Assembly: GCA_017429505.1 (NCBI GenBank)
Contig: JAFROW010000008.1
Location: forward strand, 161,549 to 225,548
DNA from: Clostridia bacterium
Lineage (GTDB): Bacteria > Bacillota > Clostridia > TANB77 > CAG-508
Length of the DNA: 64,000 nt
Direction: 5' to 3'
Shown: positions 11,791 to 59,159 of the stretch, piece by piece
Numbering within the stretch: the first letter of the stretch is position 1
How the letters are laid out: the number at the start of each line of letters is the position of its first letter
Position numbers and translations under genes: made by a program
The notes under the pieces: generated by a model
The model's database searches: none
What the model saw: the letters and a program-made list of their open reading frames with translations, nothing else
Told to the model about the DNA's origin: nothing

Positions 11791-11987
11791 AAAAAATTTG
11801 TATAGCATTTTTTAGACTAAATCAGTTGTTTGAAACAGGCATAAATTATACTTATATTATGCGTGAAAACAAAAAATAAGCTTTTTTATTTGCTTTTCTC
11901 TTTTCTTTTGGCTAAAACTATCGTAAAAATGCATTACAGTAAGTCCTCATGTTACTATCAAAAATAGGGGTGTATAGAAATTTTTTT
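11791..11987 (+). repeat. MITE-like intergenic repeat, copy 1 (~197 bp), with imperfect terminal inverted repeats AAAAATTTGTATAGCA ... GGGGTGTATAGAAATTTTT
   Basis: Its ends and length match the elements at 32899-33095 and 58850-59047 in the opposite orientation, and the shorter copy at ~52120-52245. The element separates the T-box leader from the downstream operon. Confidence 0.5.
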
Positions 11988-12074
11988 AAAAAATACTATT
12001 AACTATTTAGTAAAATAACCAACTTTTCAAATACTTATCAAATGTAAATTGTAATCTTTTTTTTGTTTGGATAA

Positions 12075-12385
12075 GACCAACATAATCTTTTTCAAAACAA
12101 AAACAAGCCATTCCTGTATTTAGGACGAAATGACTTGTTCCGCGGTACCACCTAAGTTAGTAACCTTTATATTATATAAAGCACATTTTGATTACTTACG
12201 TATCTACTTTCTCTTTATTTGTTACTCTCTTTACTATCTTTAACGCAGATATACGGCAAGGCTTACTTTTAAAAGGAAATAAAAATCACATCTATTTTCT
12301 GCCAAGCAACTATTAAGGTGATAAAAAATAATTTTTACTTACTTTGCTCTCAGCTTATGCAAAGCTCTCTGTTAGATATTGTATT
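12075..12385 (-). promoter_or_regulatory. T-box riboswitch leader (probably Ile-responsive, regulating the DUF1653-membrane protein-ileS operon)
   Basis: Minus strand reads ...aacuuaGGUGGUACCGCGGaacaagucauuucguccuaaauacaggaauggcuuguuuuuguuuu. The T-box core GGUGGUACCGCGG is followed by the terminator hairpin caagucauu/aauggcuug and a U-run. Upstream stem I has an AGAGAGC start. Confidence 0.75.
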
Positions 12386-12558
12386 ATTTTCCTTGTCCTT
12401 AATTTTGTTTTTTACTTGATATGTTGTATATAATAGCACAATTTTTTTACAATTTCAATAGTTTTAGAAAAAAATCTGTAAAAATAGCTACAATCTTGTT
12501 CCATCTTTATTGAGAACAAACAAATATAAATTCTATATAATAATAGATTATTCTTATC

Positions 12559-13754: not shown

Positions 13755-14846
13755 CTAGTTATTCACACCATGTGCATACATTGGAGTATTTTTGTCTATT
13801 GCTTTAAATTTATATCCATTCTTTTTTGCATATTTTATAATTTTTGATAAAGCATTTAAAGTCTTTGTATTTCCTGCAAAATCATGACAAAGTACCATAT
13901 TTCCTCTTCTTTTACTTAGATTCTTTGTAACATTTTTGTATACATCATTTGAAGTTTTTGCTCCACCTGCATCTCCTGATGATACATTCCAATCAAAATA
14001 TCTAAATCCTCTTGACAACATTTCTTTTGTAAGTACGCTCATTATTCCTTTAGAATAGTGTCTACTAACTGTATTTGAGCTTCCTCCTGGGAATCTCATA
14101 AATTTTGTCCTAACCCCTGTTAACTTATATATTTTATCTTGTAATTTATAAACATTGTTTAAAAATGCTTTTTTAGATTTATATATTTTTGAATATTCGT
14201 GTGAATAGCCATGTATTCCTATTGTATGCCCTTCTTTTACAATTCTTTTTATTAATTTTTCGTTTGACTTGCTGTAATTCAAAACAAAAAATGTTGCTTT
14301 GACTTTTTCTTTTTTTAATATATCTAAAACTTTTGGAGTTATTGTGCTACTTGGTCCATCATCAAAAGTTAAGTATATTACTCCTTTTGTTGATTTATTA
14401 TCACTTGGTAGATTTTTAACCTTTATTGTGCATTTTAATTTTTTATCTCCAACTTTAACCTTTATCTCTGCTGTTCCTTTTTTCTTTGCAGTTACTTTTC
14501 CTTTTGAATTAACTATTGCAACTTTTGTGTTTGAGCTTTTCCACCATTTTGCTTTTTTGTTTGTTCCTTTTATTTTTAATGTGTATTTTTCTCCAACATA
14601 AAGTGTCTTTTTGGTTTTGTTAAGACTTATTTTGTCTTTTTTTGTTTCAGATTTTGTTGTTTCTGTTTCACTTTTGTTGTTTTGATTTGATTCAGTCTCT
14701 TTTGACTCTGTATGTATAATTTCTTCCTGTTGTGTTTCATTTTTATTTGTATTTTCTACCTCTGCTGCATGTGTTCTATATTGTGCTAAATTTAATATTC
14801 CTAATATTGTTATAAATATAATTACTACTTTTAATACTTTTTTCAT
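13755..14846 (-). CDS. Polysaccharide/peptidoglycan deacetylase (NodB family) with N-terminal signal peptide and Big_2-like Ig domain
   Basis: NodB motifs LTFDDGP, HGYSHE and LCHDF. Big_2-like segment YVGEKYTLKIKGTNKKAKWWKSSNTKVAIVNSKGKVTAKKKGTAEIKV. Paralog of 14947..16176. Confidence 0.85.
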   Translation of the reverse strand: MKKVLKVVIIFITILGILNLAQYRTHAAEVENTNKNETQQEEIIHTESKETESNQNNKSETETTKSETKKDKISLNKTKKTLYVGEKYTLKIKGTNKKAKWWKSSNTKVAIVNSKGKVTAKKKGTAEIKVKVGDKKLKCTIKVKNLPSDNKSTKGVIYLTFDDGPSSTITPKVLDILKKEKVKATFFVLNYSKSNEKLIKRIVKEGHTIGIHGYSHEYSKIYKSKKAFLNNVYKLQDKIYKLTGVRTKFMRFPGGSSNTVSRHYSKGIMSVLTKEMLSRGFRYFDWNVSSGDAGGAKTSNDVYKNVTKNLSKRRGNMVLCHDFAGNTKTLNALSKIIKYAKKNGYKFKAIDKNTPMYAHGVNN

Positions 14847-14946
14847 CTTTTATTACCCCTTTTATTTCATCTTTTATATTTTCTAATATTTTTTATGTGT
14901 CTCTATTTTATTTTTTTATTAGTCCAAAAATATTTATGTATAAAAT

Positions 14947-16176
14947 TTAGTTATTTACATGTTGTGCATACATTGGTGTATCGTCATCTATTCGTGCAAA
15001 TGTATAACCTTCTTTTTTTGCATATTTTATTATTTCTGGTAATGCTTCTAGTCCTTTTTTGTTTCCTCCAAAGTCATGCATTAAAACCATATTTCCTCTT
15101 TTTTTGCTCAAATTTTTTGTAACATTTTTGTAAACGTCTTTAGCATTTTTTGCTCCACCTGCATCTCCTGAAGAAATGTTCCAATCATAATATTTAAAGC
15201 CTTTTGCAAGCATTTCTTTTGTAAGTTCTGTCATAATTCCTTTACAATATTTTCTACTTACTGTATTTGAACTTCCTCCTGGAAATCTTGTATACATTGT
15301 TTTTACACCTGTTGACTTATATATTCTATCTTGTAATGTGTACACATTTTTCATAAATGTTTCTTTAGATTTATATATTTTTGAATATTCATGTGAATAT
15401 CCATGAATTCCAATTGTATGACCTTCTGCTACAATTCTTTTTAATAGATGTTCATTGTTATCGCTATAATTTATAACGAAAAATGTAGCTTTTACATTTT
15501 CCTTTTTTAATATGTCTAAAATTTTTGGTGTTATATTTGCGCTTGGCCCATCATCAAAAGTTAGCCAAATAACTCCTTCAGTTGATTTGTTCTTTTCAGT
15601 TGTAGCTGAGGTATTGACTGCATTTTGCTCGTTTACCTTAGGTTCGTTATTTGAATTTTGATTTGTTTGAGCTTGATCTCCATTAGTGTTTGCTTTTTGA
15701 TTTTCACCTGTCTGAGCATTATTTGCATTTGCTTTTTGATTTTCACCTGTCTGAACATTATTTGTGTTTGTTTCTTGATTTTCACCTGTTTGAGCATTTT
15801 TTTCGTTTACTTCTTGATTATTTTCTATTGTTTGAGCATTATTTGTATTTACCTCTTGGTTATTTTCTGTTGTTTGAACATTATTTGTATTTACCTCTTG
15901 GTTATTTTCTACCTGAATATTGTTTGTATTTGATTCTTGGTTATTATTTGCAGTAGCTTCTTTACTTGCATTTGTTGATTCATTCGTAGTTGTTTTCCAT
16001 ACATTTTCCTCAGTTGCAACCTGAGTTTGCGGATTCTCAGAAACAACTTCAGCAGCTTGTTTTTTACTTGTTAAAACCTTTGTTAAAACTGCAATTATTA
16101 TTACTAAAATTAAAGCTGATATTGCTGTTATTATTACTTTTGAAATATTAAGTTCTTTGTACTCCATTTTTCTCAA
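14947..16176 (-). CDS. Polysaccharide/peptidoglycan deacetylase (NodB family) with N-terminal TM anchor and an Asn/Gln/Thr-rich tandem-repeat linker
   Basis: NodB motifs LTFDDGP, HGYSHE and LMHDF. The catalytic domain is about 70% identical to 13755..14846. The linker repeats NNQEVNTNNVQT(T/G)E. Confidence 0.85.
   Translation of the reverse strand: MRKMEYKELNISKVIITAISALILVIIIAVLTKVLTSKKQAAEVVSENPQTQVATEENVWKTTTNESTNASKEATANNNQESNTNNIQVENNQEVNTNNVQTTENNQEVNTNNAQTIENNQEVNEKNAQTGENQETNTNNVQTGENQKANANNAQTGENQKANTNGDQAQTNQNSNNEPKVNEQNAVNTSATTEKNKSTEGVIWLTFDDGPSANITPKILDILKKENVKATFFVINYSDNNEHLLKRIVAEGHTIGIHGYSHEYSKIYKSKETFMKNVYTLQDRIYKSTGVKTMYTRFPGGSSNTVSRKYCKGIMTELTKEMLAKGFKYYDWNISSGDAGGAKNAKDVYKNVTKNLSKKRGNMVLMHDFGGNKKGLEALPEIIKYAKKEGYTFARIDDDTPMYAQHVNN
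15690..15960. repeat. Tandem ~39-bp (13-codon) coding repeat, about 7 copies, inside the deacetylase gene
   Basis: The direct repeat attttcacctgtctgagcattatttgcatttgctttttg and its variants are visible on the + strand. Confidence 0.8.
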
Positions 16177-18197: not shown

Positions 18198-18417
18198 AAA
18201 ACCAGTCCTTTCTTAAAATGTGTGTTTAAAAATAAAGCAATAATAAATCATATATTGCACATAAATATTACCATATATTTCCTTAAAAATCAAGAAAAAA
18301 TTTTCGACAAAATCCGACAAAACATGTTTTTCACTTATCTGCTTTGAATTGTAACATTAAAAATATGATACATTAAAATTCTACTATCAATCAAAATCAC
18401 GCAAAAATAAAAAAATT

Positions 18418-18445: not shown

Positions 18446-18505
18446 ACACTCAAGAAAAATTTCTACACATTTTTGTGTAAATATAAATCCATTCGGAGGC
18501 AATAT

Positions 18506-58802: not shown

Positions 58803-58849
58803 ATTACGCTAACTTAAAATAATATTACAGCATAATATAATATTTTTTT

Positions 58850-59047
58850 AAAAAATTTCTACGCACCCCCTTTTTTGGCTATAACGTGAGGATTAACCAT
58901 AACTAATTTTTAGAGCATTTTTAGACTTAAATCTAGGATTTTTCTTTAAACAACTCTTATTTAAGAATTTCGAAAGAAATATAAGTATTATTTTAATACA
59001 CTTCGAAGCTCTTGTTTGGTTCAAAAATTGGCATAGAAATTTTTTTT
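58850..59047. repeat. MITE-like intergenic repeat, copy 4 (~197 bp), with terminal inverted repeats AAAAATTTCTACGCA / TGCCATAGAAATTTTT
   Basis: aaaaatttctacgcaccccctttttggctataacgtgaggattaacc...ttttagagcatttttagac...caaaaattggcatagaaattttttt is alignable with 32899-33095 along its length. Confidence 0.55.
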
Positions 59048-59159
59048 ATAAACTTTACTTTTAACCTGTTTCGTGTTAAAATTAAATTATATAAAACACA
59101 GGTATAATTAATTATTTTCATTAAATTATGTGACTTGAAGGAAAGGAATATAAATAAAA

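Follow-up and report, generated by a model that had tools for sequence, protein, structure and literature searches.

The 64,000-nucleotide stretch of Clostridia bacterium DNA analyzed here over its full length and referred to as the window (assembly GCA_017429505.1, contig JAFROW010000008.1, positions 161,549 to 225,548 of the forward strand) carries four copies of one family of short intergenic repeats with inverted ends, next to spoVT, smpB, a SASP gene and an operon that includes ileS. The family is likely an old, lineage-restricted, non-autonomous interspersed repeat of the MITE type (short for miniature inverted-repeat transposable element), and the element is probably inactive today.

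The four stretches, which a first-pass annotation had singled out for their shared ends, are true copies of one repeat family. When the two blocks best shared among them are joined into a composite motif, AATTTCTA-N1-2-CACCC-N17-19-TGAGGA, it occurs four times in the window (at 11982 and 52238 on the minus strand and at 32905 and 58854 on the plus strand) versus 0.00 expected from 100 dinucleotide-preserving shuffles, and the exact 14-mer AAAATTTCTAYRCA occurs five times versus 0.01 expected. An nhmmer profile made from 11 copies and run over the window gives full-length matches at 12000-11774 (172 bits), 58837-59059 (154 bits) and 32887-33109 (141 bits) together with a partial match at 52254-52171 (profile positions 6-90, 36 bits, E ~1e-10), and no other significant match in the window; a general repeat finder paired the same four regions independently (families D6, D9, I1 and I2). 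As had been claimed in part on first inspection, the internal sequences can also be aligned: twelve distinct copies align end to end with a mean column identity of 74%, and since this alignability includes the variable middle, it argues for common descent rather than a shared motif. The copies and their conserved left-arm block are located as follows.

11771-12003, minus strand: copy 1, full length (11761-12016 with the outer inverted-repeat arms; profile positions 4-227), following a T-box leader's terminator and preceding the DUF1653 / small membrane protein / ileS operon, 118 nt from the downstream gene start
32884-33112, plus strand: full-length copy 2, where a 65-aa open reading frame (ORF)/ftsY and spoVT diverge, 222 nt from the start of spoVT
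58833-59062, plus strand: full-length copy 3, 97 nt ahead of smpB
52151-52259, minus strand: copy 4, left arm only, between the divergent glmM and the SASP gene, ~100 nt from the start of the latter
11944-11982, minus strand: conserved left-arm block of copy 1, AATTTCTA..CACCCC..TTGATA-17-TGTAAT around TGAGGA, then ATG
32905-32943 (plus strand), 58854-58892 (plus strand) and 52201-52238 (minus strand): left-arm block of the other copies, from a pattern search and a register table of 16 copies

The neighboring genes spoVT, SASP, glmM and smpB are as first named, according to their Pfam labels. The dimensions of the element had to be revised, however: the unit is ~230 nt, about 35 nt longer than the 197 bp first given (~250 nt when the outer portion of the inverted repeat is counted), and the copies do not group in orientation as 1 and 2 against 3 and 4, copies 1 and 4 sharing the minus strand and 2 and 3 the plus strand. 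Of the short copy proposed at ~52120-52245 the left arm is real, and copy 4 retains only this left ~85-110 nt, whereas the supposed second end at 52120-52137 is host sequence of the SASP-promoter region, because it is carried by L031, a metagenome contig, outside the full copy which that contig possesses (L-numbers are labels of the compared loci and contigs from related genomes and metagenomes). L031 also shares the sequence below ~52150, again outside its full copy. Copy 4 has at 52143-52161 (19 nt, 89%) a weak alternative for a right-end-like arm.

All copies are intergenic, with a G+C content of 0.20-0.26 versus 0.268 for the window. With orientation A defined as the strand reading 5'-AAATTTCTACGCACCCC...TGAGGA...-3', the interior of the element is asymmetric, consisting of a conserved left arm, a poorly conserved middle and a conserved right arm. 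The left inverted repeat has the consensus ..ATATT.ATTTTTAnAAAAAATTTCTAYRCA and is followed by CACCCC, by TTTTTGAYA, by 17 nt that include an invariant TGAGGA, and by a TAnAAT-like sequence overlapping ATGCATTTT. In orientation A the left arm thus presents an internal promoter-like site, TTGAYA/TTGGCA-17-TAnAAT/CAnAAT, whose spacer is 17 nt in every copy; the TGAGGA lies inside this spacer and is left unexplained by a plain promoter. The right arm reads TTTGTTTGG..AAAAATGCTTTACAAATTTTT, in fuller form TTTGTTTGG..AAAAATGC(TTTACA or GTAGA)AATTTTT, and passes into an A/T-rich outer arm. The longest ORF in any copy has 51 codons and is not conserved.

Terminal inverted repeats of 15 bp had been proposed, and these are real, matching at 15/15 positions in copy 2 (32902-32916 / 33080-33094), but in the other two full-length copies they are weaker yet longer: 27 nt at 78% in copy 3 (58838-58864 / 59031-59057) and 44 nt at 73% in copy 1 (11761-11804 / 11973-12016). 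Equivalent inverted ends are present across the 12 aligned copies, and alignment of all ends on one another suggests that the repeats extend over ~30-38 nt as far as (G)CATAA..; they are imperfect, roughly 30-35 nt long, and best preserved in their inner 14-15 nt (AAAAATTTCTAYRCA). Motif scans detect a further inverted pair outside copy 1, formed by TTACAATTCACA (11673-11684) and TGTGAATTGTAA (12043-12054), and this outer pair brackets copy-1-type elements at ~-52 to -67 and +307 to +323 (also L020, 7399/7766, and L119, 896/1280). The outer pair may belong to a repeat that is composite or nested; it (GTTACAATTCA / TGAATTGTAAC) was also weighed as marking the true ends of the element, or a host MITE that received a nested insertion, and no stand-alone copy was found. 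Its right member also occurs downstream of three copies at the secA locus (L015, L174 and L177), and in L010, downstream of the copy there, two tandem copies of the outer right-end sequence (ATATTATTTACTTATG.GAAAT) are found at 6427-6500.

Within the data searched the family is confined to a narrow clade of low-G+C gut Clostridia, as judged from the scan results. When 185,579 species were scanned with the pattern, one genome per species, true copies turned up in a single genome, the uncultured Clostridia metagenome-assembled genome (MAG) CAMMZC01, which has at least eight (seven under the strict pattern and L005 by profile). The coding DNA of this MAG is ~83-92% identical to that of the window, and its copies are non-syntenic with those of the window except at the ileS locus. 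Matches in other taxa, including three Fictibacillus genomes in which the flanks are conserved, show no likeness beyond the pattern and were treated as chance and unrelated. A scan of metagenomes with the pattern returned at least 120 loci; among the matches listed five are true copies (L042, L089, L105, L119 and L139), of which three are identical to copies of MAG CAMMZC01 and only L119 and L139 are new. Look-ups of the window's proteins added L031, with its full copy upstream of the SASP gene, as well as L174 and L177; an exact look-up of the aldolase protein (shorter start) returned the same strain only. Copy 1 had no blastn match in plasmid and phage collections, viral contigs gave no match to the pattern, and a limited literature search found no published description of the family.

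Differences in site occupancy, and the presence of one subfamily at unrelated loci, indicate that the unit moved or was copied in the past. The smpB site is filled in the window and empty in the syntenic locus L165 (GCA_016295205.1), where the flanking genes are the same and SmpB is 92% identical; the intergenic distance is 357 nt in the window versus 99 nt in L165, in which there is no profile match, and the extra DNA relative to the empty site extends over ~58803-59052. The region upstream of spoVT is hypervariable: among six strains with identical SpoVT, copy 2 is found upstream of spoVT in the window only. In the MAG the spoVT region has a copy-1-type element that lies at a different place and is reversed, pointing toward ftsY, and in four other strains (L001, L003, L004 and L006) there is no element, its place being taken by a non-coding segment of ~440-590 nt (about 2230-2820). 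This segment, considered on its own, proved unrelated to the element and unrepeated in the sequences compared; in L004 it has suffered an internal deletion of 305 nt. At secA, L015, L174 and L177 have the element and L175 and L176 do not, with flanks too diverged for a clean junction.

Paralogs are in general 50-78% identical, and those of the window 55-62%. The copy-1 subfamily (copy 1, its ortholog L020, L005 and L119) stands at 84-88% identity, L005 and L020, both of one MAG, being 84% identical to one another, with 87-88% identity to copy 1 and L119. Elements of this type occupy three unrelated loci, at ileS, at ftsY/spoVT and at an M18-like aminopeptidase gene (L119). Short-read assemblies of the same strain end inside the element, L023 and L026 starting in copy 3 and L038 and L039 in copy 1, breaks that are consistent with a repeat that confuses the assembler. 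Small mobile or addiction modules are seen in the matching neighborhoods of related genomes, RelB/YafQ by smpB (L165, 948-1437) and HicA/HicB by secA (L175, 1781-2377), and an IS200-type Y1 transposase adjoins a SASP gene in L036 (560-1012); none of these modules has element-like ends.

The MITE reading of the first-pass annotation keeps most of its descriptive basis: the unit is smaller than 500 bp, has no transposase gene, is AT-rich, intergenic and bounded by terminal inverted repeats, and exists in multiple copies that differ in occupancy. The family would have spread to many intergenic sites in an ancestor shared by a small low-G+C clade of gut Clostridia, most likely by means of a transposase that acted in trans and recognized the inverted ends. 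The promoter-like site of the left arm, the Shine-Dalgarno-like TGAGGA and the ATG that follows would then be relics of the start of the transposase gene of a parent insertion sequence (IS), and most copies would by now be old and decaying, with some truncated or replaced via recombination.

A number of observations weigh against a MITE origin. No consistent target-site duplication, a feature for which a search had been proposed, is found in the 24 aligned ends, in the copy-1 subfamily with its flanks, or at the smpB site. At smpB the junctions, TTATTAAA abutting TTACGC... and ...TTATAAA abutting CTTTAC, compare with TTATTAAAATCTTTAC at the empty site; a duplication of TAAA or TA is possible there but not demonstrable, the empty site differs by 2 nt, and A/T richness together with divergence makes the element ends hard to delimit. 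The right-hand junctions in copies 2 and 3 are without the outer part of the inverted repeat and fall on A/T microhomologies to the host (AAATTTTT and TTTACTT, respectively), which are conserved in element-free strains, AAATTTTT before the spoVT TGTATAAT and TTTACTT as part of the smpB -35-like hexamer. At copy 2, an alignment of six spoVT loci places the end of element-derived sequence at ~33094, with the sequence from 33087 on common to element-free strains. These two junctions look more like the outcome of recombination or later erosion than like a clean transposon end. Likewise no IS or transposase with matching ends, the partner that had been thought worth seeking, was found in the window, in the related loci (small parts of their host genomes), or in plasmids, phages and viral contigs. 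The strong divergence of the paralogs together with their modest copy number gives no sign of recent activity. Four copies have G as the second base of the internal -10-like hexamer, and the promoter reading consists of hexamer matches only, with suboptimal 15-nt spacers in several copies. Finally, that internal blocks are conserved in a pattern among old paralogs could be due to selection for a host function and not to a transposon past.

The alternative that best survives, although we regard it as doubtful, is that the family is a shared cis-regulatory cassette, a "mobile promoter" or domesticated repeat, whose conserved blocks (AAAATTTCTAYRCA at both ends, CACCCC-N17-TGAGGA and the TTTACA-type right end) would be promoters and binding sites of a lineage-specific regulator and which was spread by recombination, or kept by selection for its control of downstream genes. 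Conservation of the blocks while the middle decays, among paralogs this divergent, favors it, as do the recombinational appearance of the right junctions of copies 2 and 3 and the precedent of repeated promoter-bearing segments before unrelated genes (PMC3488235). Read in orientation A, each window copy has a same-strand gene next, and at 9 of 11 independent loci the right end points toward the start of a same-strand gene, 97-364 nt off (one-sided binomial P = 0.033), a co-orientation that speaks for this reading as well as for the MITE one. The right inverted repeat moreover departs from symmetry to TTTACA, a better -35, in 11 of 16 copies (TATACA in copy 1, TTTATA in L009), and this -35-like hexamer is followed 15-17 nt on by TATAAT or TATATT. 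On the other side, the copies of L009 and L013 lie between convergent gene ends, face no gene start and have nothing to drive; close relatives lack the element at the same genes (smpB, spoVT and secA); the smpB and SASP loci have host promoter-like sequences outside the element; the downstream genes (sporulation, translation, secretion, peptidase) have no evident common theme; and the inverted-repeat architecture is left unexplained.

That copies may donate regulatory signals to their neighbors, as was suggested at the outset, is plausible under a MITE origin as well. The outward -35/-10-like pair at the right end, and the same-strand gene start that it usually faces, imply that retained copies probably add to, or modulate, the transcription of spoVT, smpB and the ileS operon. 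Three features bear on these regulatory possibilities.

11777-11804, minus strand: right-end outward promoter-like site of copy 1, TATACA-16-TATAAT, from a promoter scan and the right-end alignment
12118-12414, minus strand: T-box leader with terminator, upstream of copy 1 (Rfam RF00230, 66.7 bits, E 4.6e-14)
18456-18469, plus strand: solo inner inverted-repeat motif AAAATTTCTACACA, an exact 14-mer match upstream of an Amidase_3 gene (Pfam)

The score of the T-box leader is below the Rfam gathering score of 93, so that a default Rfam scan misses it. Since copy 1 is directly downstream of this leader and its terminator, it is situated inside the leader of the very operon that the T-box should control. 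The T-box stands ahead of copy 1 and of the whole DUF1653 / 85-aa membrane protein / ileS operon, not directly before ileS. This arrangement of T-box, element and operon is retained in a related species (L020), whose copy is orthologous with 86% identity including the flanks, and the copy at the ileS locus is older than the split of the two species. Copy 1 could allow the ileS operon to bypass the upstream T-box.

The solo motif noted in front of the amidase gene is likewise real as an exact 14-mer, but nothing element-like surrounds it by profile (2.2 bits). It lies ~10 nt past the extended -10 of a TTTACA-17-TATAAT site ahead of the Amidase_3 gene, and its position right after so strong a promoter-like site is a further point for a regulatory cassette. 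The motif may be either a relic or a shared protein-binding motif, and the region upstream of the amidase gene may as a whole be a scrambled relic of the element. About 110 nt before the 14-mer, at 18343-18354 on the plus strand, there is a copy of the outer motif with one mismatch (TTTGAATTGTAA).

A more elaborate proposal, which we consider improbable, is that of a domesticated repeat in which CACCCC-N17-TGAGGA and AAAATTTCTAYRCA would be operators of a lineage-specific regulator and the right end a portable promoter, wiring sporulation genes (spoVT, SASP) and housekeeping genes (smpB, secA, ftsY, the ileS operon) into one circuit and allowing the ileS operon to escape T-box control. Readings of the conserved blocks as a CodY box, a Spo0A box or sporulation-sigma sites were judged by eye to be too weak to claim.

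The first-pass annotation had offered as its own alternative a family of small RNA loci, i.e. small non-coding RNA genes with their own promoter and terminator in which the conserved ends would be transcription signals, and this now appears quite unlikely. Most copies do have the internal promoter-like site with its fixed spacer, copy 2 has one weak terminator-like hairpin, and folds of single sequences slightly exceed shuffles in stability (z = -1.5 to -2.0), a stability that is accounted for by pairing of the inverted ends. RNAalifold, however, yields 0 pairs in orientation A and, on the other strand, four invariant pairs with no covariation, and neither copy 1 nor copy 3 has a terminator-like site, results that together make a structured small-RNA family unlikely. 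The middle of the element is moreover its least conserved part. No Rfam match was obtained, a search of the window at gathering score giving nothing and one at E <= 1 around copy 1 giving the T-box only, and a tRNA/tmRNA scan found nothing. Least probable of all, and very much so, is a family of small-protein or leader-peptide genes, e.g. for a type I toxin or a regulatory leader peptide, encoded by the mini-ORF TGAGGA-N9-ATG CAT TTT (MHFYDSF...): although the Shine-Dalgarno-like TGAGGA stands 9 nt ahead of an ATG in 10 of 15 scored copies and the first ~8 codons are alike across subfamilies, the ATG is absent in the other 5, the frame ends after 3 to 51 codons (stops at codon 4 to codon 52), varying even inside the 84-88% subfamily, the peptide is not hydrophobic, unlike known type I toxins, and the longest version (51 aa) has no homologue among 5.8 billion proteins, a search that also gave no candidate for a parent transposase, so that a gene reading is already weakened by the want of a conserved reading frame.

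Two other repetitive features of the window stand apart from this family. On the minus strand at ~39000-42730 there are six tandem small genes that have a common ~98-nt 5' end and a hydrophobic N-terminus, MENASKALI... (repeat family D1); two of the six have no Pfam match, and the array may consist of pilin-like or secreted-protein paralogs. Also on the minus strand, at 13755-16176, two paralogous polysaccharide deacetylase genes are 77% identical over 300 nt, the second of which contains 39/42-nt tandem repeats at 15643-15973 that encode a repetitive linker.

If the MITE reading is correct, an uncultured clade of low-G+C gut Clostridia has here a further MITE-like family specific to its lineage, an ordinary kind of bacterial repeat. 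Such repeats break short-read assemblies, mark hypervariable intergenic sites and could serve as strain markers, although their practical value is modest. Of most interest are the copies directly upstream of spoVT, smpB, secA and ftsY and the T-box/ileS copy conserved in two species; should the predicted right-end promoter of copy 1 be active, it would allow T-box-independent ileS expression and would represent the rewiring of a riboswitch-controlled operon by a mobile element.

Prokaryotic MITEs are shorter than 500 bp, AT-rich and intergenic, with terminal inverted repeats and with flanking direct repeats that can fade with age (PMC10969869). The present family is like them (PMC10969869; reviewed in PMC3184786) in its size, inverted ends, AT-rich intergenic sites, absence of a transposase gene, multiple copies and differing occupancy. 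It differs in its low copy number and very old copies, in that neither a target-site duplication nor a cognate IS was found, and in its inverted repeats, which are at the long end of the usual range with only the inner 14-15 nt well preserved.

The Correia elements of Neisseria (CREE/nemis) are associated with TA duplications. They are 104-157 bp long, occur in hundreds per genome and have an IHF site, and functional outward promoters near their ends, which can drive neighboring DNA, have been measured experimentally (PMC3184786). Small, bounded by inverted repeats and often 5' of genes, they provide the best analogy for how the present family might work; however, they belong to another phylum, no sequence relation is claimed, and promoter activity that was measured there is inferred here. 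The bcr1 repeats of the Bacillus cereus group and RUP of Streptococcus pneumoniae are intergenic repeats of ~100-155 bp whose distribution is not conserved between related strains, and bcr1 is flanked by 5-bp direct repeats and is transcribed, with compensatory base changes that preserve its RNA structure (PMC3184786). These share with the present family the character of MITE-like intergenic repeats of Firmicutes, although unlike bcr1 no direct repeats or covariation were found here.

Putative mobile promoters have been described as segments of 50-100 nt, at least 80% identical, that lie upstream of non-homologous genes in one genome or in different genomes (PMC3488235). That level of identity is reached by the copy-1 subfamily only and not by the paralogs of the window, and promoter activity in the present family is predicted. 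In the Neisseria REP2 repeats the ATG opens the downstream gene (PMC3488235), whereas here it opens a short unconserved ORF and the gene start is 97-364 nt on. With a unit of ~230-250 bp that exceeds bcr1 and RUP in length, the present family is longer, rarer and older than the Correia, bcr1 and RUP elements.

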